The translations under genes and the position numbers were made by a program. The notes under the pieces were generated by a model. It was not told the origin of the DNA. It saw nothing but the letters and a program-made list of their open reading frames with translations, and ran no database searches. A stretch of DNA of 64,000 bases from a virus (taxonomy: Duplodnaviria; Heunggongvirae; Uroviricota; Caudoviricetes): the IMG/VR virus record IMGVR_UViG_3300037484_000445, positions 259,863-323,862 of that record, one strand, 5' to 3'. This document shows positions 12,569-62,707 of this stretch, piece by piece (position 1 is the stretch's first letter; every line of letters starts with the position of its first letter).

Positions 12569-12873
12569 TCGGCAGATTCGAGAAAGACCCTCAGGCCCAA
12601 GGCTGCATCGAGCCCGCGGATAAGCGTTGGCAACTCGTCATCGACAAGGACGGCTACCCGCATCTCTACGTCGAAGTCAACATAGCCGACGACAACGGTG
12701 TGAAGACCAAAGGCATGTTCTGCCTCGAGGACATGATGAACATCACCGTCAAGGAACTCATGGATGAGGGTGAGTTTGGCGGTGCTCTTCCCCCCGAAGA
12801 AGAGGAAGAGGCCATGGCCGAGTACCTAGCCTCACGAGAAAAGACTGGGATCCCGTGTCCCAGAAAGCTCTAG
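12553..12873 (+). CDS. hypothetical acidic protein
   Basis: GTG start. Confidence 0.4.
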   Translation: MQNITIGRFEKDPQAQGCIEPADKRWQLVIDKDGYPHLYVEVNIADDNGVKTKGMFCLEDMMNITVKELMDEGEFGGALPPEEEEEAMAEYLASREKTGIPCPRKL

Positions 12874-13397
12874 TCGAGCTTGGATAGGTATTGGACGGGC
12901 ACACGATCTGTGAGCCACACACCATTGGTGGACAGATAAAATGTGTGCCCGTCGATGAACATGTTCCGGGCCTTGACCAGCAGGACGTGAGGCAAGGGCC
13001 GTCGCTTGGCCACTTTGATGGCCGTCTCCGTGTCCGCCGAAAGGTGGACGTGGTGGCGGTTCATCTTCCTCAGGCCCTCTTTGAGGATCATCCCCAAAAA
13101 GTGGCCTGAGGTACCATGGTAGAGTAACTCAGGTGGCTGAGTAGCCTCATACCCTAGGTCAACTTCAACCGAATGCCCTTGGCAAGCACGGATCTTGTCG
13201 CCGTTGAACTCGTAGCGCTTCTTCTGGTCCGTGTTGACGATTTCGTACAATTCCCCCGTAGTCATTGAAGCCGCTTTTACAAGCTCTTCAATCGACACCC
13301 AGCCGGAAGCGTCGAGGGTTAGCCCAACGCTCCCAGGGTCATGCCTGAGGATCAGGCTGAGGTGTTTGCTCTTGCGTGTGCGAGTCTTGTTGTCCAT
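12870..13397 (-). CDS. kptA: RNA 2'-phosphotransferase, Tpt1/KptA family
   Basis: SKHLSLILRHDPGSVGLTLDASGWVSIEEL..HGTS..HVHL is the hallmark of Tpt1/KptA. Confidence 0.85.
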   Translation of the reverse strand: MDNKTRTRKSKHLSLILRHDPGSVGLTLDASGWVSIEELVKAASMTTGELYEIVNTDQKKRYEFNGDKIRACQGHSVEVDLGYEATQPPELLYHGTSGHFLGMILKEGLRKMNRHHVHLSADTETAIKVAKRRPLPHVLLVKARNMFIDGHTFYLSTNGVWLTDRVPVQYLSKLD

Positions 13398-13978: not shown

Positions 13979-15334
13979 TTACACCGACGCCGCCACCTCC
14001 GGAATCAAACCCAACAGTTTTTCTTCGGAGTTCAAGGTAGGATCTTCAGTTACCCTTTCCAACAGCTCGGCCAAGATGTTTCCAACCTTGGGCCCTGGGG
14101 GGATGTTGAGCAACGTCATCACGTGGTGGCCACTCACCGCCAACATGCTGGACGACGTGGGGATGGTGCCCACGCTGTCGATCCGGTGCTTGAGCTCGTT
14201 GATAGTGGTGATCTCCAGAGGAATGAAGGCGTTACCCTTACCTACGATGTCCGCTATAGCCAACGTGGTTAGGTGTGGGATGTGCTCGACTCCGACACTT
14301 CGCATCCATCTACGGACGGCGGCATCACTCCAATCGGATTCATATCGAACGAAGTGGTGCCGGACCAAGTGGGCCACTCGGGCGACTTCGTCGCTCGAAA
14401 ACCTCAAGCGGGTCATCAAGTCCTGCGTCATAGCGGCCCCGATATGTTCGTGGTCGTAGAACGTAGCGTCCCCGTGTTGTGGGTGGGGCTTCTTCGAATC
14501 TGGCTTGCCGATGTCGTGAAACAATGCTGCAAACCTGAGCATGGGGTCGCTGGCCGGGCAAGTATCCACCACCTTCATGGTGTGATTCCAGACATCGAAC
14601 TCATGGTACCGATTCTGGCCACACCCCACCATAGGGAGCATCTCCGGCAGAATCATTCCAAGCATCCCCGTGGAGGCCATCAGGTTGAAAGCTCTCGAGG
14701 GTTCAGCAGCGGCCATGGTCTTGGTCAATTCATCTCGGATCCGCTCAATAGAAACCCTCCCCAGTTGGTCTAGGGTATGGGCTAGGGCAATCCGAGTGGA
14801 GTCGATCAGGGTCAAGTTGTGCGTGGCCGAAAAGCGGATGGCTCGAAGAAGACGAATACCATCCTCACGGAACCGGTCAAATGAGTTTCCAACCGTACGC
14901 AAAATCCCTGCTTTGAGGTCCTGCCGTCCGTTGTAGGGGTCGAAGTAGTAGCCGCCACCCTCGACAAGAGGGTCGAAGGCTATGGCATTGACCGTGAAGT
15001 CCCGCCGGGCTAGGTCATCGTGGATGCTCGTGGAGAACTCGACGCTATCCGGCCTTCGACCGTCGGAATAGGTGCCATCCTTACGGTAGGTTGTAACCTC
15101 AAATCCTTCGCCCTCGAGACGGACCGTGATAGTCCCGTGCTTGGCTCCGATGTCCAACGAATGGCTGAAGCACCGTTGAGTCTGTTCGGGGGTGGCATTG
15201 GTCGCAAAGTCCCAATCATGGACGGACCTTTGAAGCAATAGATCTCGAACGGCACCACCTACAAGCCACGCTTCGAAACCCTTATCCTGTAGAGTCTGGC
15301 AAATGGCTATGACTTTTGGGGGGATGGAGTTCAT
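13979..15334 (-). CDS. cca: CCA-adding tRNA nucleotidyltransferase (class II) with HD domain
   Basis: GGAVRDLLL, DWDFAT, ARRDFTVNAIAF in the head domain; HD motifs HTMKVVD..FHDIGKP. Confidence 0.85.
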   Translation of the reverse strand: MNSIPPKVIAICQTLQDKGFEAWLVGGAVRDLLLQRSVHDWDFATNATPEQTQRCFSHSLDIGAKHGTITVRLEGEGFEVTTYRKDGTYSDGRRPDSVEFSTSIHDDLARRDFTVNAIAFDPLVEGGGYYFDPYNGRQDLKAGILRTVGNSFDRFREDGIRLLRAIRFSATHNLTLIDSTRIALAHTLDQLGRVSIERIRDELTKTMAAAEPSRAFNLMASTGMLGMILPEMLPMVGCGQNRYHEFDVWNHTMKVVDTCPASDPMLRFAALFHDIGKPDSKKPHPQHGDATFYDHEHIGAAMTQDLMTRLRFSSDEVARVAHLVRHHFVRYESDWSDAAVRRWMRSVGVEHIPHLTTLAIADIVGKGNAFIPLEITTINELKHRIDSVGTIPTSSSMLAVSGHHVMTLLNIPPGPKVGNILAELLERVTEDPTLNSEEKLLGLIPEVAASV

Positions 15335-31431: not shown

Positions 31432-32617
31432 AATCGTAGGTATCGTAATAGCCGTTGCTCTGACAATACTCTTCGGGGCCGAAACTTTCACGACGGTAGC
31501 GGCTGACGAAATCGTCGTTAAACAAGGGTTCTTCACGGGGGCTCTCACCGTTTGGACCGATCCAGGGCCCAAGTTCCAGAATTTTGGAACTCTTACACGG
31601 TACAAGAAGTCGTCTCAATACTCGTTTTCAGCGGTAAAAGATCAAGGTAAGGAAAAAGACGAATCCATCAAGGCCCGCTTCAACGACGGTGGCCACGGTA
31701 ATATCTCGGGCACACTTCAGGTTGATCTACCTCTTGACGCCAAAAACATGTCCGAACTTCACATGAAGTTTCACAGCCAAGAGGCTATCGAACAACGCTT
31801 GGTTCGTACGGCCGTCGAGCGAGCCATTTATATGTCGGGTCCTCTCATGTCTTCCAAGGAGAGCGCCGCCGAACGTCGTTCGGATCTCTTGAAGTTTATC
31901 GAAGACCAAGTTCGATTCGGGGTTTACCAAACCTTAACCAAGAGCGAAAAGGTCCAGGATGAGGTTTCAGGCAAAGAGAAGACTGTTGCCCGAGTTGAGT
32001 TGATCCCAGACGGTAAGGGTGGATTTGCACGTCAAGAGGCTTCATCCCTTCAGCAGTACGGAATTCGAACCTATAGCTACAACATCAATGGCATCAAGTA
32101 TGAGGATTTGGTTGAGGCCCAGATCGCGGAACAACAGAAGCTGGCCATGAAGATCCAGACGGCTATGGCTCAATCGAAGGAAGCCGAGCAACGAGCGATC
32201 ACGGCAGCCAAAGAGGGTGAGGCTTCCGCGGCTAAGGCTAAGGCCGACCAAGAGGTGTTGAAAGCGACTGAAGTCACCAAGGCCGAGCAGGAAAAGGCCG
32301 TAGCTCTGACCAACGCCCAACGTGAGAAGGAAGTGGCCCAGCTCGCACTAGAGACAGCCGAGCTCAAGAAGAAGGAACAAATCCTCTTAGGTGAAGGTGA
32401 AGCGTCACGTGCTCGGGCTATGATGCAAGCTACAGGGTTCTTGCCTGAGCGCTTGGAGGCTTGGACAAAGGTTGCCTTGGTCTATGCCGAGCAGTCCGGC
32501 AAGCAGCGCCAAACTCCGGACGTCGTAATGGGTGGCGGCGGGAACAAGCCCGACCTATCCGACATCATGCAGATGAGCCTTGCTCGTCAGCTAGGTCTTG
32601 GGTCTCTAGGAAAATAG
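31418..32617 (+). CDS. SPFH/flotillin-like membrane protein with Ala/Glu/Lys-rich coiled coil
   Basis: N-terminal TM, globular domain, then a long AEQ/KAE coiled coil as in YqiK/flotillin. Confidence 0.45.
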   Translation: MKIVRIVGIVIAVALTILFGAETFTTVAADEIVVKQGFFTGALTVWTDPGPKFQNFGTLTRYKKSSQYSFSAVKDQGKEKDESIKARFNDGGHGNISGTLQVDLPLDAKNMSELHMKFHSQEAIEQRLVRTAVERAIYMSGPLMSSKESAAERRSDLLKFIEDQVRFGVYQTLTKSEKVQDEVSGKEKTVARVELIPDGKGGFARQEASSLQQYGIRTYSYNINGIKYEDLVEAQIAEQQKLAMKIQTAMAQSKEAEQRAITAAKEGEASAAKAKADQEVLKATEVTKAEQEKAVALTNAQREKEVAQLALETAELKKKEQILLGEGEASRARAMMQATGFLPERLEAWTKVALVYAEQSGKQRQTPDVVMGGGGNKPDLSDIMQMSLARQLGLGSLGK

Positions 32618-32950
32618 CCCCAATAACCAACGGATGAAGGAGGGGGTTGTAGATCGGCCTCCTCCTTCATCATTTTGTCGACGCCTAAGCCAAATTTTCC
32701 TAGAAGGGAGTGTAGCCCAACACCTAGGTCTATCCGCGTCTTTTAGGTCAGTCTCAAGGCCACAACCAGGACACGTAATGGTTGGGTAGTAAAAGTCCTC
32801 AGTATCCCCACAATGATCGGTCAAGTAGAGGTCTTCGACTCGAACCAAAAGAATGGCACCACAACCACCATTCGTCTCGTGCCCCCAACCAGTGCATTCG
32901 ATCTCTAAAGACCAATCTTTCGGATCATGTCCAGGTTTCAAAATGTCCAT
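32606..32950 (-). CDS. Cys-rich small protein, paralog family B
   Basis: CTGWGHETNGGCGAILLV..CPGCGLETDL is shared with the next gene. Confidence 0.5.
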   Translation of the reverse strand: MDILKPGHDPKDWSLEIECTGWGHETNGGCGAILLVRVEDLYLTDHCGDTEDFYYPTITCPGCGLETDLKDADRPRCWATLPSRKIWLRRRQNDEGGGRSTTPSFIRWLLGLFS

Positions 32951-32953
32951 GGG

Positions 32954-33301
32954 TTACTCAACAGGGGGCGTTACGAGTTGAACTCTTCGAGCTTTCGCCT
33001 TCTTACGCTTCTTCAACCACTGCTCTTTGCTCGGAATGTCCCTGTTCAGGCTGGGTTCCTCCTTCTTACTCAGGTCCGTCTCAACTCCACACGCACAACA
33101 TTTGAACGTGATGTAGCGATCGGTCTCACCCATACAGGAGCTTTCGGTACGGTACAGGTCACCCTCTTCGACAAGAAGAACAGCGCCACAGCCGCCACCA
33201 CCATTACCGTTGCCGGTACATTTGAATTGCTTGGACCAACCTTTTTGTTCTCGACCTGGCTTAACGACTTTCATATCCTTCGTCCTCTTGGTGCTTGACA
33301 A
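32954..33301 (-). CDS. Cys-rich small protein, paralog family B
   Basis: CTGNGNGGGGCGAVLLV..CCACGVETDL. Confidence 0.5.
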   Translation of the reverse strand: MSSTKRTKDMKVVKPGREQKGWSKQFKCTGNGNGGGGCGAVLLVEEGDLYRTESSCMGETDRYITFKCCACGVETDLSKKEEPSLNRDIPSKEQWLKKRKKAKARRVQLVTPPVE

Positions 33302-35223: not shown

Positions 35224-35931
35224 ATGGAAACTGCTTCCAAAAAGTACCCCCGGTCGCCCCACCTACCGTGGTCCCCCGGCGGTACCTCGGATGATCGGCG
35301 AATGCTCGACGTCTCGAGTCTTCTTGGGAAGGCGATCGTTTTCACCGAGAAATGTGATGGTAGCAACCTGACTTATACCCGAGACGCCATCTTTGCTCGA
35401 TCGCATAATGGGCCACCAACTCACGATAGCTTTGATCTGGCCAAGGCAACCCACGCCCATCTCAAGTACAAGATCCCCGCAGGGCTCTCAATCTTCTGCG
35501 AATATTGCTACGCCATCCATTCAATTGAATATGTAGCACTCCCGAGCTACTCTCTCGTATTTGGCGTCCGGGACGATAGCACCCGAGAGTGGTGGGGTTG
35601 GGAAATGGTCGAAGCCATGGCCCAAGATTTGGGACTTCCCACCGTCCCTGAGATCTGCCGCGGCGTTCTTCACACGGAAGCAGATCTTAGGGAAGTGTCC
35701 GAGGCATTTGCTCTACGACCCTCGGATTTTGGTGGAACCCGTGAAGGAGTTGTAGTCCGAGTGCTTGACGGCTTCCGTGATGAGGACTTCGATCAGAGTT
35801 TGGCTAAATGGGTCCGCAAAGGTCATGTCCAAACGGATGAGCATTGGACCAAGATGGTCATCAGACCCCAAAGGCTCAGTACTTCGGCTCGGGCAGTGTC
35901 CTGCAATACGCTAGAATTTCTAGCCAATTGA
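35224..35931 (+). CDS. ATP-dependent RNA ligase, Rnl2/DRB0094-like nucleotidyltransferase domain
   Basis: Motif I TEKCDGSN (KxDGxN), motif IV EGVVVR, motif V KWVRK. Confidence 0.6.
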   Translation: METASKKYPRSPHLPWSPGGTSDDRRMLDVSSLLGKAIVFTEKCDGSNLTYTRDAIFARSHNGPPTHDSFDLAKATHAHLKYKIPAGLSIFCEYCYAIHSIEYVALPSYSLVFGVRDDSTREWWGWEMVEAMAQDLGLPTVPEICRGVLHTEADLREVSEAFALRPSDFGGTREGVVVRVLDGFRDEDFDQSLAKWVRKGHVQTDEHWTKMVIRPQRLSTSARAVSCNTLEFLAN

Positions 35932-36322
35932 TGGGACGCAACGGGTAGTTACGATCGTCGATGAAAAGGTCTGCTGACACCTTCCCCTGTCCACCATCGT
36001 CAATGAAAGCGAATACGTTGGGGAGGTTATCCTCGACGAATTGAAGCATTTGGGCATAGCGCCGTTGGTTCACCATGTTGTCCACCCAAACAGGCCCCCC
36101 CTCTGTCTTCCACAGAGGGTTCAACTTGAAGTCAAACCGCCCGGCGCGGTTAGCTCGTCCGCTGTAAAGGATGAGATCGTGGCCCCAAGCCTTTAGCTGT
36201 AAGAGCGCTTCTTTGGCGTTTGGTAGGAACTCTAGTGGTGTGGTGACGTCGTCGTACGTCTTCCGGTTCCCGTTGATGCCGCCAACTACGATGGTGTCGT
36301 CAAAGTCTATGGCTATTCTCAC
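35876..36322 (-). CDS. HAD-superfamily phosphatase (DxDxT)
   Basis: IAIDFDDTIV at the N-terminus; size similar to Pnkp-type 3'-phosphatase domains. Confidence 0.5.
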   Translation of the reverse strand: MRIAIDFDDTIVVGGINGNRKTYDDVTTPLEFLPNAKEALLQLKAWGHDLILYSGRANRAGRFDFKLNPLWKTEGGPVWVDNMVNQRRYAQMLQFVEDNLPNVFAFIDDGGQGKVSADLFIDDRNYPLRPINWLEILAYCRTLPEPKY

Positions 36323-36346
36323 AGTGTTGGTCCTTTGCCCCTGTTG

Positions 36347-36841
36347 TTACACCAAAGGAACACCGTCGTCTATCAATCGAACGTTAGAATATCGAGGATC
36401 ACCTGTTACTTCAGGCCCTAACCATGGAGGTATTTCCACAGTGGCGAACTGTGATTCTATCTCTACTTCGGCCATTCGAAACCCGTCCAGGCTTCCCTGA
36501 AAATCATCGAGAGCCCATACGCGGCCCTCGTAAGAAAACTGGTGCCTGACCTTGATGATGGTCTTCGGGCACATCTTGATGAGTTGCTCGCCGTCGCCCC
36601 TGGGGATCTCGTATTCAAACTCATCCCGGACTAGCGTGCCGGGACCCTTGATGGTCAAGTAGGCAAGATGTCTCCCCCTAAGTCGTACCCTAACAAGAGG
36701 GTCCTTACTGAGAAACCCTTGAACTATGCGTGTCCCACCCTCCAGGATGGTGTTCGTGGGGATGTCAGAGCGAAGTAGGAACTTACGTTCGATCTCTTTG
36801 GCCATTCCTCTGGTAACACCACAGGAATGGATACCACCCAC
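36347..36841 (-). CDS. CYTH-domain triphosphate tunnel metalloenzyme
   Basis: EIERKFLL signature (ExExK) and conserved downstream Arg/Glu residues. Confidence 0.7.
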   Translation of the reverse strand: MGGIHSCGVTRGMAKEIERKFLLRSDIPTNTILEGGTRIVQGFLSKDPLVRVRLRGRHLAYLTIKGPGTLVRDEFEYEIPRGDGEQLIKMCPKTIIKVRHQFSYEGRVWALDDFQGSLDGFRMAEVEIESQFATVEIPPWLGPEVTGDPRYSNVRLIDDGVPLV

Positions 36842-36869: not shown

Positions 36870-37469
36870 CTATTCTTGGACTCTAGATTGCAGGGGTTGA
36901 GATGCCCACCGCTGTGTCCAGCTCCGTTCGAAATTCTTGAGTTGTTCTAGGCCCCTTCTAGCTAAACGATCCAAGTCCAACAAGGAAACATCAAGCTTGG
37001 ATACGACGTAGCCATGCAAGTCATTAGAGGCGATTTGGAACGAGAGATAGTAGGCGTTCTCGCCCGTAGGGAGCTTGTGGCTTATCACCACATAGGACGT
37101 GCTATTGGCGTTACTAAGAGCCCTGAGAGTTAGTGCAGGCTCAACGCTGACCAAAGCAAGAGCGTTGTGCAAAAGCTCCATCGGGTTACCTTCTTGAGAA
37201 AGAGCCTCCAACTCTTTGAGCACACGGCGGTCCTCTTCCGGAAGGAGCGCTGAAAACTCCTTCAGCTTGAAAGCTGTCCCTATAACGTCATTGACGAATA
37301 GGACAGCGTACTTGCCCAGGGCTAGGGTAACAATACCGTCAGACTCCTCGAGAAAAATCCTAGGGTATGTGCTAGCGAGTACGTGAGCTTTTTCAATCAA
37401 AGTCGACAAGAGGGACTCCTGGGTTTGGTGGAGGCATGGTAGCCGAACGAATCGCGGAGCCGTAGGCAA
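36870..37469 (-). CDS. hypothetical protein
   Basis: ORF. Confidence 0.5.
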   Translation of the reverse strand: MPTAPRFVRLPCLHQTQESLLSTLIEKAHVLASTYPRIFLEESDGIVTLALGKYAVLFVNDVIGTAFKLKEFSALLPEEDRRVLKELEALSQEGNPMELLHNALALVSVEPALTLRALSNANSTSYVVISHKLPTGENAYYLSFQIASNDLHGYVVSKLDVSLLDLDRLARRGLEQLKNFERSWTQRWASQPLQSRVQE

Positions 37470-38028
37470 CCGAACGTGGCGTGTGTGACTGAAGTAGGCA
37501 CAGAGACGCGAAATTCAGTAAAGCGGCGTAGGGTTCTACGACCTCAGCCGGCAAGGGCTTGGATGCGCTGTTCAAGATGTAGCGCCCGTCCAAATCCCAA
37601 GCCTCGAAAACAGCTTCGACGACGTTATTGAAATGCAGCTCGATCGTAACCATCTCCCTTGAAGAAGACATACCGGAGATCGTCAAGTGCTCGGGGTGGG
37701 TATCCACCAGATTTAAAGCCCTCCTAATCAAGTTAGGCTCTAGCTTGGGCCCACTCACATCGTACTTGAAAAGGGCCATTTCACGGACAATCCTACGCAA
37801 GTTCTCTGGAATGCCGTTGGGATAAGTGGCCCAAAAACTGAATTCAACCTCAACTCCGGTAATAACCAGGGAAATCAAAGAGACTGACTTCTCATCACTG
37901 AGGTCCAAACGCCAGTAGTTGTCACGAGTTTCCAAGATCAACAAAGAGGACTTTGGCGCGATCCCTCTGGCCTTGTCGACCAGGTAGTCGTGGTTCCTAA
38001 CAGGTTGCTCAGCTACTTCGGATGTCAT
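37393..38028 (-). CDS. hypothetical protein
   Basis: ORF. Confidence 0.5.
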   Translation of the reverse strand: MTSEVAEQPVRNHDYLVDKARGIAPKSSLLILETRDNYWRLDLSDEKSVSLISLVITGVEVEFSFWATYPNGIPENLRRIVREMALFKYDVSGPKLEPNLIRRALNLVDTHPEHLTISGMSSSREMVTIELHFNNVVEAVFEAWDLDGRYILNSASKPLPAEVVEPYAALLNFASLCLLQSHTPRSVAYGSAIRSATMPPPNPGVPLVDFD

Positions 38029-39090: not shown

Positions 39091-39321
39091 TTAAGGCTCG
39101 GCCCCGCGATAGCGAAGTATTTCAAGGTAGGAGCTATAAGCGCTATGCCACTGACTGACCACTTCGTCTTCGTCGAGAGAGTTGTCCAGGGTCTTTTGGA
39201 TGATGACTTGCCGAACGTCAGCCACAGCAACCCCCAAGCGCTGAGCCAATGTCCTCTCGAGGGCCGCAAGTTCCTCGAGAGTTTGCTCATCGGTCTGGAT
39301 GAGGTCCTCGAAGTCCTTCAT
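39091..39321 (-). CDS. small acidic protein
   Basis: ORF. Confidence 0.4.
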   Translation of the reverse strand: MKDFEDLIQTDEQTLEELAALERTLAQRLGVAVADVRQVIIQKTLDNSLDEDEVVSQWHSAYSSYLEILRYRGAEP

Positions 39322-40058
39322 TGGATGAAGTGCATCATTTCTACCCAGCGATCGACGATCATCTGCGTGTACAAGACGGGGTCCATACCATAGGACCCAA
39401 GAGCCCAGGCATCGTTGACTTCGACGATGAGGGTGCGACCATCACCGCCCGTAACACCCACGTCAAGGGAGTAGCCACAAGGAGCATTCTTGAAAGAGGC
39501 TATTGCTTCGTGAGCAATCCTCCTTTCCGGGAATATCTCGAAGTCCCCGGCGTAGTGCCGGCAGCCGATCATCAGCTGGTTGTGGACGAAATAGCGATAT
39601 TCCGATACGAAGGAGACCGGATCTGAGGCTACTACCTCCATATCGTCAGGATGATCCGCTAAGGCCACCAAATCCGGGATGGTGCCGTTGAAAACGAACC
39701 CCGTGAAAGCCTTTTGTGCCTTGAGGGGTTTGATGAAGACGGGCCCAGACGTCTTACGTATCTCCCCCAAAGTTGTGGTCCAAGTCTTTCGCCCAAAAAG
39801 GGGCTCTATCTGGGGCGGTACTTCAGGTAGTTCTGGGATCTGCTTACCCAGGCACTTGATGGCTGACTTGACATGGGAGATGTAGCCGTGGACTAGGGTC
39901 TCTGGCTTCAGGTTATCCCGAATGTCCGAGAAGAATGAAAAGAACTGGGTCTCAATATCAAGCCTTTGACAGCCCAACCACAAGCAGTAGGCTGTCTCAT
40001 TGATGGGCAGCTTGGTGTTGTAGTCCACCTGAATGTAAGCAAGCTCAACAGTACTCAT
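39318..40058 (-). CDS. ATP-grasp-fold enzyme
   Basis: VFIKP..G, SEYRYFV, and LIVEVNDAWALGSYG (Mg-binding E-x-N) fit an ATP-grasp C-terminal domain. Confidence 0.5.
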   Translation of the reverse strand: MSTVELAYIQVDYNTKLPINETAYCLWLGCQRLDIETQFFSFFSDIRDNLKPETLVHGYISHVKSAIKCLGKQIPELPEVPPQIEPLFGRKTWTTTLGEIRKTSGPVFIKPLKAQKAFTGFVFNGTIPDLVALADHPDDMEVVASDPVSFVSEYRYFVHNQLMIGCRHYAGDFEIFPERRIAHEAIASFKNAPCGYSLDVGVTGGDGRTLIVEVNDAWALGSYGMDPVLYTQMIVDRWVEMMHFIQ

Positions 40059-40312
40059 GGTGTGCCCAATTTTGGTTGTAGAACTTCAACGGCCGCTAAT
40101 ATCGCTACCTTACCCTCTTCCGTGATCGTGTGGCCTGTCGTGTAATTGAACATCGCACTAGGCTCACTAGACTTCCTAAGAAACCCGTGTTTAATAAGAG
40201 GCGCCAACTCTTCCAACCGCTCATCCTTTGAGCGTAACACTTGAATACCGTTCACTTCGCACTCAATGTAGAAGATCAGCAAATCCTTAAGATTCTCGGC
40301 TGTAAGCTTCAT
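40055..40312 (-). CDS. small hypothetical protein
   Basis: ORF. Confidence 0.4.
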   Translation of the reverse strand: MKLTAENLKDLLIFYIECEVNGIQVLRSKDERLEELAPLIKHGFLRKSSEPSAMFNYTTGHTITEEGKVAILAAVEVLQPKLGTP

Positions 40313-41208
40313 TGAGCAAGAACCTTCTCGAAGCCAGCCATGTTGAGAGCGATCATGATTTGCACGGGTTCGGGAATCTGAGGCATGATGGCCGTAGTTT
40401 CATTGAAGGGGTTGCAACCCCATTCACCAGTTTTGGCCCGGTATGGGTCAACAGCAACCCAAGTCCCAATAGATGGGGTGAGTGCCGCTGCTGCAGCAAC
40501 CACATCATGAAGGGCTTTCCCCATAGGGTGCTTCTTGAAGTAGTAGCGCATCCCCTCCTTGATGAAGTCGAGCCCTGGATGCGCCCCTGATGGAACCTTG
40601 TCATTGAATTCCGGTGGCCAGAATATCCCGTGACACACGTTCTTAGGAACAAGCCTACGATGGCGTATGACCGATAGAGGGTTGCACAGAAGGGCTTTAG
40701 CCGCAGTCGGATCCCCATTCAAATTGTACGTAGGACACGTAATAAGACCATTGAACTTTGGTAGCCTTAGGGGTTCAGGGACAACGTTATCCCCGGCGAA
40801 CCCTCCTTGGCAGGTCCAATGGTTGAAGAACCTAATGCAATCCCGAGCGGCGTTGGCGATGTTCGTCAAAGCAGCACCCGTGACTAGTTGGACGTCTGGG
40901 AACTTCCAAAGAGCATCCTGGATGACGCTCACGGCTGTGTCGTCGGGGGGACTGTCTGGGATCTTACCCAACCAATCATAGTGGAAGGCCGAAACCTTTG
41001 GGCCTGACTTCTTGGGGGTACCAGCGCCGACATAGATGCCTTTCACTCCCAGGCGGTCCAAAACATGACGAACCAGGCCTACCTGGTCATGCCCGCCCGG
41101 ATGAATTGTCACAGCAACGAGATTGGACCTTGGATGGGTCGCTAGGAGAGCTAAAGCGAAGACGTCGTCGGGATCGCTGGTCTCCATATCAAATACGTAA
41201 TTGGTCAT
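40309..41208 (-). CDS. nucleoside hydrolase-like protein (IU-NH family)
   Basis: N-terminal FDMETSDPDDVFALALL resembles the DxDxxxDD Ca-binding signature; 299 aa. Confidence 0.5.
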   Translation of the reverse strand: MTNYVFDMETSDPDDVFALALLATHPRSNLVAVTIHPGGHDQVGLVRHVLDRLGVKGIYVGAGTPKKSGPKVSAFHYDWLGKIPDSPPDDTAVSVIQDALWKFPDVQLVTGAALTNIANAARDCIRFFNHWTCQGGFAGDNVVPEPLRLPKFNGLITCPTYNLNGDPTAAKALLCNPLSVIRHRRLVPKNVCHGIFWPPEFNDKVPSGAHPGLDFIKEGMRYYFKKHPMGKALHDVVAAAAALTPSIGTWVAVDPYRAKTGEWGCNPFNETTAIMPQIPEPVQIMIALNMAGFEKVLAQ

Positions 41209-43191: not shown

Positions 43192-43455
43192 GTGGACTCC
43201 TTCAAAAACGACGAAAAGCTGATTAGTGACGTAAAGGTAGGGGATCGCTACTACGAGTACGATTACAAGGGCCTTCAAAACCACACCGGAAATATCGTCA
43301 CTGTTGTTCGAGTTACCTCCCTTCAAGCGGTCTTGTTGAACGGTAAGCGCTTTAGCCGTATCACAGGCAACACCATTGGGCCTGACAAGTACACGGTCTT
43401 CTACCTGCCGATCACGCCCGCTCGCGAGGCTCGGCCGAACCACGACGCCTATTGA
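43192..43455 (+). CDS. hypothetical protein
   Basis: ORF. Confidence 0.45.
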   Translation: MDSFKNDEKLISDVKVGDRYYEYDYKGLQNHTGNIVTVVRVTSLQAVLLNGKRFSRITGNTIGPDKYTVFYLPITPAREARPNHDAY

Positions 43456-43820
43456 TGCTAAAAGTCATCCTATTCCTCGACGATAATCCGGCTCGACACA
43501 CCGTCATGGATGCCCGATACCCAAATGACTTGGTCGTGCATGCCTACAACATCCATGCTTTTCGAGCAGCGCTTGAGGAGCACGAACACTTTGACATGAT
43601 CAGCCTGGACCATGATCTCAATGATTTTGAGGCTCGGAGCTACATTGGAGATAGCGACGCCACAGGCCGTGACGCCTGTGGCTACATGATGAAGTACCGT
43701 GACAAGCTACCGCCAGTGATCATCATCCACTCGGGGAACGATGACGGATCTAAGGACATGGCGGAATTTCTAGCTAGTCGTGGAGTAGCCTCCCGCCGTC
43801 GGATCCTCTACCCCCTCTGA
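43452..43820 (+). CDS. CheY-like receiver (REC) domain-like protein
   Basis: ILFLDDNP, DMISLDHDL and PPVIIIHSGND occur in receiver-like positions. Confidence 0.4.
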   Translation: MMLKVILFLDDNPARHTVMDARYPNDLVVHAYNIHAFRAALEEHEHFDMISLDHDLNDFEARSYIGDSDATGRDACGYMMKYRDKLPPVIIIHSGNDDGSKDMAEFLASRGVASRRRILYPL

Positions 43821-43821
43821 A

Positions 43822-45225
43822 TCAATCGGCACCCTTGATGTTGGCCAATGGATATAATCTGTTGGCCACTCGGGCAATCTTGTTGTCCGTAAGGACACTA
43901 AGGACTTCGTCCAGGTCTTTGTAGACCCGGCAACATTCATCCAATGGAATATGAGGGTGGTTCGTGGCGATGCCCACCACCGTATCCCCTCCAAGGGTTC
44001 GCTCGACCGTTCGCATATCCTCATCAATTTGGTCCTGCTGGCTCTCGAGTTCACGTCGAGCTCGGCCTCGGGCCATCAAACGACCTGAGCCGTGATTGAC
44101 TGAGCACGCCGATTGAATAGCCCCTGATTGTGCGAAAAGAATAGCGGCCCCATCGTACATCGACCCCGGGATGAGACAGGGGTGGCCGGTCTTTTCCCAA
44201 ACGGTTCCCACGAGGTCAGGGTGGCCCCCTGGAAAAGCTCTAGTGGCCCCCTTACGATGAACAAATCCTTTCTTGGTGGAACCATCAGGAAGAAGCAAGG
44301 TTTCCTCCTGGACGAGGTTGTGACTGATCTCGTAGTAGACAGTAGAGTCTCCCTTGAAAACCTCTTGGAGAGCTTCCTGTATGCCTCTAACTATCACATG
44401 GCGATTAGCGATAGCAAAGTTGGCAGCTGAGTTGTGATAAGCCCAATATTCCTTACCCAGGGCTTCATCTATCCTTAACCAGGATTCCTCACGTCGATTA
44501 TCTGGCAACCCTCGAAGCTCAGCTCCGCGATGAAAGAAGTGATTGGCCGTTTGCCATCCATAACCTCTCGATCCACAGTGGACCATCACGAAGACGTCTC
44601 CTGTTGCCTGGTCCGCCAGAAGTTCTACGTAGTGATTACCTCCCCCGACGGAACCTAGTTGAGGAACAACCTTGTCATAGGCCTTCTCGATGGCCTCCAG
44701 GTCAAGGTCATCTGGGATGGGAATGTATTGTCGTTCACACAGATTGCTATTGACGCCTAAAGCCTTAGCTCCATATCGGAGGATCTCTTGAGCCTTCTTG
44801 TGGCTGAAGGCCGGCATCAACTCCGGACGATTCGAACCAACCCCCGTGGCAATACGCTTTTCTACCTCTCGAACCCAAAGCTCTCGCTTGGCAAAATCCT
44901 GAACATCCTGAGTCTTGAGAGTGGTTTTTAGGGCCACAATTCCACAACTCACATCGTAACCAGACCCCGCTTGAATGAGAACATTGTCCGTGACGATCAC
45001 ACAACCAATAGGTACGCCGAAGCCCATATGACCATCAGGCATACCGTAAACCCCAGTCACGCCTTCATATGAAGCTGCATCGTGAAGCTGACTCCAAAAG
45101 GCTTCTTCAGAAGCCTCATATAGAGTCTCTGAAAAGAACACGTGAGCCTCAACCCTCATCGTGCCTACCTTAGGTAGGACGTAATGACTAGGACTTACCG
45201 GTTGAGCAATGTACTTGAAGGACAT
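43822..45225 (-). CDS. rtcB: RtcB RNA 3'-phosphate/5'-OH ligase
   Basis: MPDGHMGFG, GGGNHYVEL, HCGSRGYG, HNLV and NHGSGR motifs. Confidence 0.9.
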   Translation of the reverse strand: MSFKYIAQPVSPSHYVLPKVGTMRVEAHVFFSETLYEASEEAFWSQLHDAASYEGVTGVYGMPDGHMGFGVPIGCVIVTDNVLIQAGSGYDVSCGIVALKTTLKTQDVQDFAKRELWVREVEKRIATGVGSNRPELMPAFSHKKAQEILRYGAKALGVNSNLCERQYIPIPDDLDLEAIEKAYDKVVPQLGSVGGGNHYVELLADQATGDVFVMVHCGSRGYGWQTANHFFHRGAELRGLPDNRREESWLRIDEALGKEYWAYHNSAANFAIANRHVIVRGIQEALQEVFKGDSTVYYEISHNLVQEETLLLPDGSTKKGFVHRKGATRAFPGGHPDLVGTVWEKTGHPCLIPGSMYDGAAILFAQSGAIQSACSVNHGSGRLMARGRARRELESQQDQIDEDMRTVERTLGGDTVVGIATNHPHIPLDECCRVYKDLDEVLSVLTDNKIARVANRLYPLANIKGAD

Positions 45226-61354: not shown

Positions 61355-61456
61355 ATAGGATTCCTCAATTTCACTAAGCGTATACACCGAAGCCGTGTGA
61401 ATGGCTTTCTGGGATGATCCTGCATATCCCACGGTTTTCGGTGTATGTGCCAACCC

Positions 61457-62707
61457 ATGACGAGCACGAGAAAAAGTCGAGCCTACGACTACCTCAGGAA
61501 GGTCATGAAGGTGGCCGCAGATGTCAGCTCAAGACTACCCGAAAGTAAGGACGGTATCTTCACCAAAGCGGTCAAAATGCTTGGCGTCGTCGACTCGTTG
61601 AGCAACCACATTTGGGGCGAGGAAAACCTGACGGATCTAGGTAAGTACCTCAAGGATATACCCTATGAAGTCGAATCTGGAAAAAATTCTCGATTCATCG
61701 ATCTATTCTTTGCTTCTAGCTTGACCCGTATGTTTGACATCGAAGTCGTCAAGCTGACGAGCAACTCCAACATCATCAAAGCCTCGCACCCCACGATTGG
61801 TACCATACATTTCTATGAGCACAATGGGGCCACATCCAATTACCCCCTATATTGGTACCCCCCAGGCTTCAAATTCGATGAAGCCCTACGAGCAATTTGG
61901 GGAGACTTCAATGGGCGTATGCATCTTGGACAGGCCTTAGACAAGAACCGCAACGTCATCAGTGAGTACACGACGATACCTGAGCCCAAGGACCCGCTTT
62001 TAGGTGGAGCCCAAAAGCGCTTGGACGAATTCGTTACTCAGCACCGAGCGTATATTCGGGACGGGGTACCAAGGACCTACCTCATGTACGGCAAGCAAGG
62101 GGGTGGCAAAACGAGCTTTGCCCTTCGAATAGCTAACTTAGCCGAAGGCCACGTCCTCAGGATTGACGCCAACAGCCTGACCTCACTGGGCATGCAAGAG
62201 ATCGACTTTCTCATTGAGGGCCTCTGTCCGGATTTCATCATCGTTGATGATATCGATCGTGCTGCAGATCTAAAAATCTCCCTTCCAACACTGTTTGCGA
62301 TTCTAACGGACTTCAAAGGCAAGCATCCGAGCCTCACGGTCATTCTAACAATCAATGATATCAAGGAGCTCCCCCCGGCACTGTTGCGACCGGGTCGCAT
62401 AGACGTCCTTGTGGAATTTGATACTCCTACCGCCGAAGAACGTGAAGAGATCCTTCGAGGGTACCTCAAGGATTTCGGTATACCGGCGGACATGGACTTA
62501 GCCGACCTGGTGTATGAGACTGAAGGCCTGACCGCCGCCTACCTACGGGAAGTAGCCCTGCAGCTTAGGTACCGACCTCCAGCAGACGTCATCAAAATCA
62601 TCAAGAAAATGAACGAGTTGGCAGGTACTACTGTGAGGCCGAAAGATAAGGCCGAAGACAAAGATGTTGTGTGTGGTAAAACTACTGCTTCCGTGGAGCC
62701 GTCATGA
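61457..62707 (+). CDS. AAA+ family ATPase
   Basis: Walker A GKQGGGKTS, Walker B FIIVDDID, second region of homology ALLRPGRID. ATG preceded by CGGTGTATGTGCCAACCC. Confidence 0.8.
   Translation: MTSTRKSRAYDYLRKVMKVAADVSSRLPESKDGIFTKAVKMLGVVDSLSNHIWGEENLTDLGKYLKDIPYEVESGKNSRFIDLFFASSLTRMFDIEVVKLTSNSNIIKASHPTIGTIHFYEHNGATSNYPLYWYPPGFKFDEALRAIWGDFNGRMHLGQALDKNRNVISEYTTIPEPKDPLLGGAQKRLDEFVTQHRAYIRDGVPRTYLMYGKQGGGKTSFALRIANLAEGHVLRIDANSLTSLGMQEIDFLIEGLCPDFIIVDDIDRAADLKISLPTLFAILTDFKGKHPSLTVILTINDIKELPPALLRPGRIDVLVEFDTPTAEEREEILRGYLKDFGIPADMDLADLVYETEGLTAAYLREVALQLRYRPPADVIKIIKKMNELAGTTVRPKDKAEDKDVVCGKTTASVEPS

Follow-up and report, generated by a model that had tools for sequence, protein, structure and literature searches.

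Do three neighbouring genes of a huge phage, encoding an ATP-dependent RNA ligase, a HAD-superfamily phosphatase and a CYTH protein, form a dedicated RNA-repair unit, or do they simply lie side by side? We addressed this question in a stretch of 64 kb (hereafter the window) from a phage genome of ~450 kb, for which genes were identified, folds and catalytic motifs assigned and statistics on gene neighbourhoods compiled. The three ORFs were found where the original prediction had placed them, together with the motifs it quoted (EKCDGSN, EGVVVR and KWVRK in the ligase, DxDxT in the HAD protein and EIERKFLL in the CYTH protein) and the convergent overlap of the ligase and HAD genes. It had also correctly recognised a CYTH protein, a HAD phosphatase with DxDxT and a ligase in which motifs I, IV and V occur, as PF09414 and PF01928 scored above their cutoffs and the HAD motifs are present. 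However, its proposal that the three genes act as a healing-and-sealing unit found no support, because they do not co-localise outside one phage lineage, the partner of the ligase family is a P-loop kinase and the ligase is encoded on the opposite strand. We consider it likely that the ligase is a lone ATP-dependent RNA ligase complementing RtcB, and that the two adjacent phosphohydrolases are not part of a joint machine.

The RNA ligase and its relatives

The ligase gene (35224..35931, plus strand) encodes a stand-alone ATP-dependent RNA (polynucleotide) ligase of 235 aa that comprises the adenylyltransferase domain only. It matches the PF09414 RNA_ligase profile with an E-value of 2.9e-26 over profile positions 3-171 of 171, and also matches phrog_34045 and phrog_24030, both of which are named 'RNA ligase'. 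Motif I (EKCDGSN, residues 42-48) contains the lysine K43; motif III is E93, motif IV is EGVVVR (174-179) and motif V is K195-WVR198 (KWVRK, 195-199). Alignments revealed that K43, D45, G46, E93, E174-G175, R179, K195 and R198 are invariant in phage and bacterial homologues and that N48 is conserved in at least 90% of them. The family is further marked by an N-terminal signature, KYPRxxHLPWSPGxxxDD, and a C-terminal one, GHVQTDEHW. The conserved part stops at about residue 217, and residues ~218-235 form a tail that lacks conservation and lies in the overlap with the HAD gene.

When the AF2 model of the ligase (pLDDT 84.6) was compared with the PDB using Foldseek, the best 40 matches were all RNA ligases. 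The E-values were 2.7e-6 for NgrRnl (Rnl5), ~3e-5 for Rnl3, 6.5e-5 for T4 Rnl2 and 6.9e-5 for Trl1-LIG; the probability was 1.00 for these four and for Rnl1, and the TM scores for NgrRnl, Rnl3 and T4 Rnl2 were ~0.4-0.5. DNA ligases ranked lower, with E-values of at least 2.7e-3. Because phmmer against PDB sequences gave spurious matches only, and a profile search of the same sequences gave marginal ones only (Trl1, E=0.024), the clade assignment rests on AF2 and Foldseek. The label 'Rnl2-like', used in the original prediction, stands at the level of the Pfam family, into which the N-domain of T4 Rnl2 also falls. It does not extend further, as the Rnl2 C-terminal domain is absent: the protein ends ~20-35 residues past motif V with no extra domain in the AF2 model, and, judged from that model, its structure resembles Rnl2 no more than it does Rnl5, Rnl3 or Trl1. 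Sequence and model thus describe a minimal single-domain RNA ligase of the PF09414 family with predicted sealing activity. The concern that it might be a DNA-ligase fragment was ruled out, given the profile score (93.1 bits against a cutoff of 27), the dominance of RNA ligases among the fold matches and the complete domain and motifs. We also rejected the name '2'-5' RNA ligase', which is used in the XacN1 annotation and belongs to the unrelated 2H family.

The closest cellular homologues of the ligase are from Polyangiaceae, and other viral homologues are 36-53% identical to it. The Polyangiaceae ligases nearest to the phage protein are paired with HD-Pnk, and an HD+AAA_33 (HD-Pnk) gene adjoins the ligase in 64 of 80 bacterial loci. 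Five bacterial lineages and a viral contig were confirmed by Pfam analysis to have this architecture, and ligase and kinase were detected within one ORF in the actinomycetes Streptomyces and Catenulispora. This adjacency and the actinomycete fusions therefore indicate that the ligase family relies on a kinase, and sequence comparison places the phage ligase in this bacterial HD-Pnk-associated family. In none of the 80 bacterial loci does KptA neighbour the ligase. The viral ligases have heterogeneous immediate neighbours, with Pnkp in only 2 of 67, and 12 of them carry an N-terminal extension, identified in the tabulated member as an HNH domain. No healing enzyme lies beside the ligase homologues of XacN1, Phosso and CcrSC, three annotated jumbo phages in which only HNH, HTH and capsid-like genes were seen at these sites. 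We infer that the ligase was probably exchanged with Polyangiaceae-like bacteria by horizontal transfer.

A relevant comparison is the LIG/HD-Pnk repair cluster of Runella slithyformis, reportedly the work of Munir and Shuman in 2017. The phage ligase is 60-67% identical to Polyangiaceae ligases encoded beside an HD+P-loop-kinase gene, some of the 64 bacterial pairings show the published order, with the ligase ORF directly upstream of and overlapping HD-Pnk, and the Tpt1/KptA gene of the Runella cluster has a counterpart in the phage window. In contrast to that cluster, the phage ligase is not beside HD-Pnk, no kinase lies within the 64-kb window and the phage KptA gene is 22 kb away from the ligase. 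The gene arrangement, rather than a direct alignment, suggests that the phage and Runella ligases are of the same family. The ligase-like protein of the Runella cluster is reported to adenylylate itself and to seal no standard substrate tested (PMC6097658), which, if this family assignment holds, is a point against the sealing role that we favour for the phage enzyme.

The neighbouring phosphohydrolases

The HAD gene (35876..36322, minus strand) encodes a small cap-less phosphatase of 148 aa, for which any role at the substrate level is a prediction. Motif I (D6-x-D8-x-T10; DFDDT, residues 6-10), motif II (S54), motif III (K114) and motif IV (D121/D122) are all present on a Rossmannoid fold, which makes it a member of the HAD superfamily. 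Pfam gave no match even at E<=10, including HAD_PNKP, PNK3P and HAD_SAK, and the protein is neither a Pnkp-type (PF25109/PF08645) nor a SAK-HAD (PF10307/PF18143) 3'-phosphatase. It is a BT0820-like HAD. The DFDxT and ADLFIDDRN motifs are common to the window protein and the BT0820 family (PDB 2obb; NCBIfam NF046079), and both are small and cap-less. However, the window protein scores 29.9 bits, far below the NCBIfam cutoff of 165 bits, and has ~40 helical residues inserted between its motifs II and III. A literature search found no paper that mentions BT0820.

Could the HAD protein alone serve the ligase as a 3'-phosphatase, like the SAK-HAD of jumbo phages, with the CYTH protein unrelated and a kinase provided from elsewhere? 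The cap-less form is often used on macromolecular substrates, the active site is complete and the HAD gene overlaps the ligase gene's 3' end in all members of the lineage. Moreover, stand-alone HAD phosphatases are known and accepted components of phage RNA repair (PMC7824862). We nevertheless regard this partial partnership as improbable. Apart from the missing Pfam matches, many small-molecule HADs are structurally closer to the protein than Pnkp is, and the HAD family was found beside the ligase in none of 80 viral and none of 80 bacterial loci; conversely, no ligase lies near the HAD homologues in contexts L004-L008 and L012. A peptidase (M14 or C39) is fused to 17 of 66 HAD family representatives and an RNA-repair domain to none, and homologues at ~50% identity follow portal and RyR genes in small phages. 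A rare family of small BT0820-like HADs with recurrent M14 and C39 peptidase fusions points away from RNA repair.

The CYTH protein, a triphosphate-tunnel metalloenzyme (36347..36841, minus strand), has 164 aa when translated from a GTG codon. Its start is more probably M13 at 36805, which would give 152 aa, the length at which its relatives are called. It matches PF01928 (E=8e-8, 32.7 bits, cutoff 23.2) and, in phmmer, NeuTTM, the inorganic triphosphatase (PPPase) of Nitrosomonas europaea (3typ/2fbl; E=3e-13). NeuTTM is likewise a single CYTH domain of ~150 aa, and its ExExK motif and every basic and acidic residue of its tunnel can be aligned with the window protein, every catalytic position being retained: E-x-E-x-K (EIERK), R-x-R, K, E-x-E, K-x-R and E-x-E. 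The two differ in that the window protein is phage-encoded. NeuTTM entries were the only solved CYTH relatives found by sequence, and no similarity to Cet1-type RNA triphosphatases was detectable. The protein is classed as a predicted NeuTTM-type triphosphatase. Its reading as a CyaB-type adenylate cyclase was rejected, since 'adenylate cyclase' is a generic JGI name and a triphosphatase is the nearest relative of solved structure. The neighbours of CYTH homologues in IMG/VR are homing endonucleases, AAA ATPases and genes of unknown function, and none of 20 IMG/VR contigs has an RNA-repair partner in the CYTH neighbourhood.

The original prediction had offered the CYTH protein as a substitute for a 5'-kinase. 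TTM enzymes hydrolyse triphosphates and thus cannot make a 5'-PO4 from a 5'-OH, which speaks against this suggestion for a NeuTTM-like protein.

It is possible, although we think it rather unlikely, that the CYTH and HAD proteins carry out a two-step degradation of nucleotides or polyphosphates (for example, NTP or PPPi by CYTH, followed by NMP or PPi by HAD), which would remodel the nucleotide pools of the host in concert with the nearby genes for a nucleoside hydrolase and a deoxyribosyltransferase-like protein; the ligase would be unrelated. The two genes are co-oriented with a short spacer, the CYTH protein is NeuTTM-like, and 5'(3')-deoxyribonucleotidases and a HAD pyrophosphatase are among the structural neighbours of the HAD protein. 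The window contains IU_nuc_hydro and Nuc_deoxyrib_tr genes, and CYTH triphosphatases, which are scattered over jumbo phages, have been read together with MazG as NTP-degrading (PMC7824862). However, CYTH and HAD were not found paired beyond the lineage, and the fusions of the HAD family suggest a peptidase-linked function over one in nucleotide metabolism.

Arrangement and conservation of the three genes

The ligase and HAD genes are convergent and have 56 nt in common (35876-35931). The CYTH gene lies 24 nt upstream of the HAD gene on the same strand (in contig L001 the two overlap by 1 nt), and the ligase is on the strand opposite to both. Upstream of and co-oriented with CYTH and HAD are two further minus-strand ORFs of 199 aa (36870..37469) and 211 aa (37393..38028) without Pfam, PHROG or NCBIfam match; homologues of both occupy the same position in L194, L193 and L001, and they may be operon mates of the CYTH and HAD genes. 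A promoter and terminator scan of 34.5-38.5 kb gave fewer sites than expected by chance, and a megablast of 16 kb against INPHARED phages gave no match.

We then compared the locus with related genomes, in which the original prediction expected the three genes to be conserved neighbours. This expectation largely failed: only one phage lineage of ~450 kb has retained the arrangement, in four contigs that are syntenic with each other, and each recovered contig of that lineage has it. Among 80 other viral ligase loci (each examined within +-10 kb) and 80 bacterial ones, the HAD gene was found in none, and the CYTH gene in one viral and no bacterial locus. Five huge-phage genomes encode both ligase and CYTH, 27-416 kb apart. 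The proximity of HAD and CYTH to the ligase probably reflects lineage synteny and not a dedicated module.

These data also bear on the full healing-and-sealing scheme, in which HAD would remove the 3'-phosphate, CYTH would replace the kinase at the 5' end and the ligase would seal. The adjacency in the four contigs, the intact catalytic motifs of all three proteins, the lack of a Pnk within the window and the nearby RtcB, cREC, KptA and macro genes are in its favour. We nonetheless consider it very improbable, since TTM enzymes have no means of phosphorylating the 5'-OH ends that RNA-cleaving toxins leave, the closest solved CYTH relative is an inorganic triphosphatase, the ligase family is tied to a true P-loop kinase in bacteria, and the HAD protein is of neither the Pnkp nor the SAK type and comes from a peptidase-fused family; in addition, co-occurrence of the three families is limited to the lineage, and convergent transcription leaves no operon. 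The T4 system of Pnkp with Rnl1 and Rnl2 shares with the phage an ATP-dependent RNA ligase that is phage-encoded and has motifs I-V, and a presumed role in countering RNA-cleaving host defences. Unlike T4, the window has no Pnkp (kinase plus HAD_PNKP phosphatase), and its ligase lacks the C-terminal domain of Rnl2. None of the features of a T4-type cassette, namely a 5'-OH kinase within the window, a Pnkp- or SAK-type HAD and co-localisation across lineages, was found.

A different joint function would be the remodelling of RNA 5' ends, in which CYTH turns 5'-ppp into 5'-pp, from which HAD makes 5'-p, and the ends are then joined or circularised by a kinase-independent ligase or ADP-ribose-capped by KptA. 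We give this idea hardly any chance. If true, it would be a previously undescribed route in which no polynucleotide kinase is needed, and it would fit the failure of the Runella ligase-like protein on standard substrates.

Several observations count against our preferred reading of a lone ligase beside two unrelated phosphohydrolases. The adjacency of the three genes was kept although the L001 proteins have diverged from those of the window (70% identity for the ligase, 87% for HAD and 61% for CYTH) and although flanking genes, including R2K, nucleoside hydrolase and SPFH genes, were gained or lost around the trio within the lineage; therefore, some selective linkage of the three is possible. 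In L001, the trio is only ~2.4 kb from cREC-RtcB. The cap-less form of the HAD protein and the HADs known from phage repair point in the same direction.

RNA-repair genes across the window and the role of the ligase

The window contains a rich RNA-repair set, as had been suggested. The KptA/Tpt1 RNA 2'-phosphotransferase (12870..13397, minus strand; PF01885, E=3.3e-43), the macro domain protein (19667..20125, plus strand, 152 aa) and the RtcB 3'-phosphate/5'-hydroxyl RNA ligase (43822..45225, minus strand; PF01139, E=2.8e-82) named by the original prediction are all present. They are joined by a CCA-adding enzyme or poly(A) polymerase-type tRNA nucleotidyltransferase with an HD domain (13979..15334, minus strand; PF01743, E=8.8e-36, with PF12627, PF01966 and PF13735) and, beside RtcB, a divergent cREC (cyclic-phosphate-processing receiver) domain protein (43452..43820, plus strand; PF20274, E=4.2e-11). 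Pfam missed the domain of the macro protein, which was recognized by phmmer against the PDB macrodomains 2fg1, 2afc and 5e3b (E~1e-47 to 3e-43) and against a Poa1p-type ADP-ribose 1''-phosphate phosphatase (7e-11); from its context, it is predicted to process ADP-ribose or Appr>p downstream of KptA. No tRNA gene was found within the window. Because the sole Walker-A ORF is an AAA ATPase (61445..62707), the 64-kb window of the ~450-kb genome contains no polynucleotide kinase, neither HD-Pnk nor any other P-loop kinase, in agreement with the original prediction.

The RtcB-cREC pair is retained in L001, L193 and L194. The swapping of RtcB alleles within the lineage suggests that RNA-repair genes are still under selection.

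In our favoured explanation, this huge phage carries a scattered RNA-repair and NAD/ADP-ribose toolkit, as other jumbo phages do. ATP would adenylylate K43 of the ligase, the AMP would be passed to a 5'-PO4 end, and attack by the 3'-OH would seal the break. We infer a division of labour in which the ligase would handle 5'-P/3'-OH breaks and RtcB would handle 2',3'-cyclic-P/5'-OH breaks. The ends used by the ligase might be made directly by metal-dependent nucleases or, alternatively, might arise after healing by a kinase or phosphoesterase that the host or another part of the phage genome encodes. HAD and CYTH, a co-oriented pair of their own on the strand opposite the ligase, are most likely small-molecule phosphohydrolases acting on a triphosphate, a nucleotide or another phospho-metabolite, or are otherwise unrelated to the ligase.

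The RNA-repair and NAD-ADPr repertoire of jumbo phages was described by Iyer et al. 2021 (PMC7824862). The window shares with it an Rnl2-family ligase (with HNH-fused relatives), RtcB, KptA with a macro protein, a CCA-adding enzyme and a cREC protein beside a ligase. It differs in that its HAD protein is in neither of the HAD families listed there (PNK-HAD and SAK), and in that its ligase is of the HD-Pnk-associated bacterial type, closest to myxobacterial sequences. The general picture of several RNA ligases, RtcB with cREC, KptA with macro and a CCA-adding enzyme deployed against tRNA- and RNA-cleaving host defences is known for jumbo phages; the window is one more example of this repertoire and opens no long-standing question. 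What the locus does add is an HD-Pnk-associated ligase that probably passed between myxobacteria-like hosts and a phage lineage of ~450 kb unaccompanied by its healing partner. If the orphan biochemistry of this ligase is solved, the phage copies would be useful comparators.

The ligase gene and its relatives

The ligase ORF (35224..35931, plus strand, 235 aa) and the HAD phosphatase ORF (35876..36322, minus strand, 148 aa) are convergent and have 56 nt in common, and the CYTH ORF (36347..36841) lies 24 nt upstream of the HAD gene on the same strand. This agrees with the original prediction, whose quoted motifs were all found in the three ORFs. Direct profile validation was obtained for two of the three proteins, the ligase (PF09414 RNA_ligase, E=2.9e-26, far over threshold) and CYTH (PF01928, over threshold). 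Public automated gene calls in relatives open the ligase at M27 (209 aa) and lose the invariant KYPRxxHLPWSPG..DD (35224..35301); the 235-aa reading is the correct one. For CYTH, the start is likely to be M13 (36805); the longer GTG reading, which adds the stretch 36806..36841, is probably an error.

The window is part of a huge phage, as indicated by its gene density, mixed strands, tail-fibre-like and sigma-factor genes, and by the best ligase matches, which lie in 460-735-kb 'uncultured phage' genomes. Since contigs of 448,843, 451,925 and 457,658 bp are near-identical or related to it, the window covers roughly a seventh of a genome of ~450 kb. A word-indexed search returned 755 ligase homologues. 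Motifs I (K43), III (E93), IV (EGVVVR) and V (KWVR) are invariant in the family, which also carries its own signatures, N-terminal KYPRxxHLPWSPGxxxDD and C-terminal GHVQTDEHW. Outside the phage lineage, the nearest homologues are 'RNA ligase family proteins' encoded on chromosomes of the Polyangiaceae genera Sorangium, Polyangium, Minicystis and Byssovorax (60-67% identity), followed by those of Bryobacteraceae (~55%), whereas other viral homologues share only 36-53%. This difference hints at exchange of the ligase gene between phage and myxobacteria-like hosts, and the Polyangiaceae likeness may point to the phage host. The GC content of the gene (54%) is like that of the phage and unlike that of a 70%-GC host.

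A sequence search against solved structures detected no similarity to the ligase. The top structural matches of its AF2 model (pLDDT 84.6) were all RNA ligases, namely Naegleria Rnl5 (2.7e-6), archaeal Rnl3 (about 3e-5), T4 Rnl2 (6.5e-5), fungal Trl1-LIG (6.9e-5) and T4 Rnl1 (3e-4), all with TM about 0.4-0.5, and DNA ligases ranked lower. These matches indicate that the modelled protein is a bare adenylyltransferase domain, without the C-domain of Rnl2 or the N-terminal OB domain of Rnl5. The label 'Rnl2-like' given to it earlier thus holds at the level of the Pfam family and fails beyond it, as the Rnl2 C-domain is absent; the defining features of the Rnl2 clade proper were tested and not found.

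Neighbours of the ligase in phages and bacteria

We found the three genes together in four syntenic contigs of the same lineage, L194 and L195 (~99% identical to the window), L193 (ligase 90, HAD 91, CYTH 86%) and L001 (70, 87 and 61%), in all of which CYTH and HAD point the same way, towards the ligase, and the 3' ends overlap. This constancy mostly reflects common descent, because the whole region is syntenic in those contigs. Among 80 IMG/VR ligase loci with ±10-kb flanks, the HAD family was found in none and CYTH in one, 5 kb off, and neither was found in any of 80 bacterial ligase loci. Five huge-phage genomes encode both ligase and CYTH, 27-416 kb apart. CYTH homologues in 20 viral contigs adjoin homing endonucleases, AAA ATPases and unknowns, and HAD homologues (~50% identity) in small phage contigs follow portal and RyR-domain genes, without ligase or CYTH. 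Among the loci examined, the trio therefore occurs in one syntenic lineage only, which largely refutes the proposal that the genes are conserved neighbours. The suggested healing-and-sealing logic of T4 Pnkp/Rnl is not supported; the defining features of a T4-type Pnkp/Rnl cassette were also tested and not found.

In bacteria, the ligase adjoins, in 64/80 loci, a gene for HD-Pnk, a protein that begins with an HD domain and ends in an AAA_33 P-loop kinase; this gene is divergent in Polyangiaceae and elsewhere directly downstream, overlapping the ligase. Pfam confirmed this domain order for five lineages of bacteria and for one viral contig. Two actinomycetes, Streptomyces (L141:3548-5776) and Catenulispora (L160:3605-5734), have ligase and AAA_33 kinase in one ORF of ~710-740 aa, that is, as a ligase-kinase fusion. 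In gene arrangement, the bacterial pairing matches the Runella slithyformis cluster of 'putative ATP-dependent ligase + HD-Pnk', whose ligase-like protein is reported to have formed ligase-AMP and to have sealed none of the tested standard substrates (PMC6097658). Given the adjacency, the fusions and the match to Runella, the ligase family depends on a conventional kinase/phosphoesterase healer.

The ligase stands mostly alone in viral contigs, where its immediate neighbour was a T4-type Pnkp in two and HD-Pnk in one of 67 non-redundant loci. The 64-kb window of the ~450-kb genome indeed contains no polynucleotide kinase, as had been noted, its sole Walker-A ORF being an AAA ATPase. Twelve ligases of viral loci bear an N-terminal extension, with an HNH domain in the tabulated member; an HNH extension was noted earlier on jumbo-phage 'Rnl2-family' ligases (PMC7824862).

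The HAD and CYTH proteins

Exhaustive profile searching returned 810 relatives of the HAD (E<=0.001), and 68 passed E<1e-30. Among the 66 best-scoring newly listed representatives, 17 are 303-459-aa fusions with the HAD domain, and 14 of these keep an intact N-terminal DxDxT. Ten long members were tested: seven have a C-terminal M14/AstE-AspA zinc peptidase, one has a C39 cysteine peptidase, and RNA-repair domains are absent from all ten. A dedicated polynucleotide 3'-phosphatase thus becomes less likely; the recurrent peptidase fusions suggest that the substrate of this rare BT0820-like HAD family may be peptide- or cell-envelope-related.

CYTH aligns over its full length with NeuTTM, the Nitrosomonas europaea inorganic triphosphatase (E=3e-13), and keeps all tunnel residues, which identifies it by homology as a NeuTTM-type enzyme. 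TTM chemistry is triphosphate hydrolysis, and RNA-cleaving toxins leave 5'-OH ends. CYTH would therefore be unable to make the 5'-PO4 required by the ligase from a 5'-OH, and the idea that it substitutes for a kinase on RNA 5' ends is not upheld. It is very improbable that CYTH and HAD instead remodel 5' ends without a kinase, turning pppRNA into pRNA that feeds the ligase or KptA capping. The two are best read as separate phosphohydrolases, which plausibly degrade nucleotides or triphosphates as a pair; the CYTH and MazG triphosphatases scattered among jumbo phages have been read as NTP-degrading enzymes (PMC7824862).

RNA-repair genes of the phage lineage

As originally predicted, the window also encodes KptA (12870..13397, minus strand), a macro domain protein (19667..20125, plus strand) and RtcB (43822..45225, minus strand). 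The macro protein gave no Pfam match at E<=0.01 and matches PDB macrodomains 2fg1, 2afc and 5e3b (~1e-47). Divergent from RtcB is a cyclic-phosphate-processing receiver, cREC (PF20274; 43452..43820, plus strand). L001, L193 and L194 have the same back-to-back pairing, which fits the published prediction that cREC acts with RNA ligases. The window RtcB is only 61.5% identical to that of L194/L195 (L194:964-2367), yet the flanking genes are 96-100% identical, and it shares 86% identity with RtcB of the more distant L001 (L001:11996-13399), a pattern suggesting that RtcB was swapped by recombination within the lineage.

Further window genes encode a CCA-adding enzyme, an R2K ATP-grasp enzyme, a nucleoside hydrolase and a deoxyribosyltransferase-like protein. 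The block at 39318..41208 (minus strand), comprising the R2K-clade ATP-grasp gene (PF18299/PF14243), a small ORF and an inosine-uridine nucleoside hydrolase, is variable: L193 is missing the hydrolase, and L001 the ATP-grasp gene, small ORF, hydrolase and adjoining M78 gene. Two tandem paralogous small Cys-rich (zinc-ribbon-like) proteins (32606..32950, 114 aa; 32954..33301, 115 aa; both minus strand) are likewise duplicated in L001 and L193. At 22415..24990, a DUF4419 protein (E=5e-77) and, close by, a ThiF/E1-like enzyme (E=6e-63) possibly make up a phage system of ubiquitin-like or adenylation type. L193 (NCBI JBFOMY010000030.1, 449 kb) carries two genes absent from the window, a second PF09414 ligase (311 aa, L193:230-1165) near RtcB and a TnpB/Cas12f-like gene (L193:17329-18678) at the position of the window's deoxyribosyltransferase/tail-fibre region.

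From these gene identities, folds and neighbourhood statistics we infer that the ligase is most likely a lone ATP-dependent RNA (polynucleotide) ligase. Its K43 would be adenylylated, AMP would pass to a 5'-PO4, and a 3'-OH would then attack. The 5'-P/3'-OH breaks sealed in this way could come directly from metal-dependent nucleases, or be left after healing by a kinase/phosphoesterase of the host or of another part of the phage genome. RtcB and cREC would handle 2',3'-cyclic-P/5'-OH breaks, and the rest of end clean-up would fall to KptA with the macro protein and to the CCA-adding enzyme. Since the gene set matches the jumbo-phage repertoire of Iyer et al. (2021; PMC7824862) and the ligase fits the LIG/HD-Pnk family of bacteria, the window is a further example of something known, the repertoire having been described for jumbo phages and the ligase family for bacteria.
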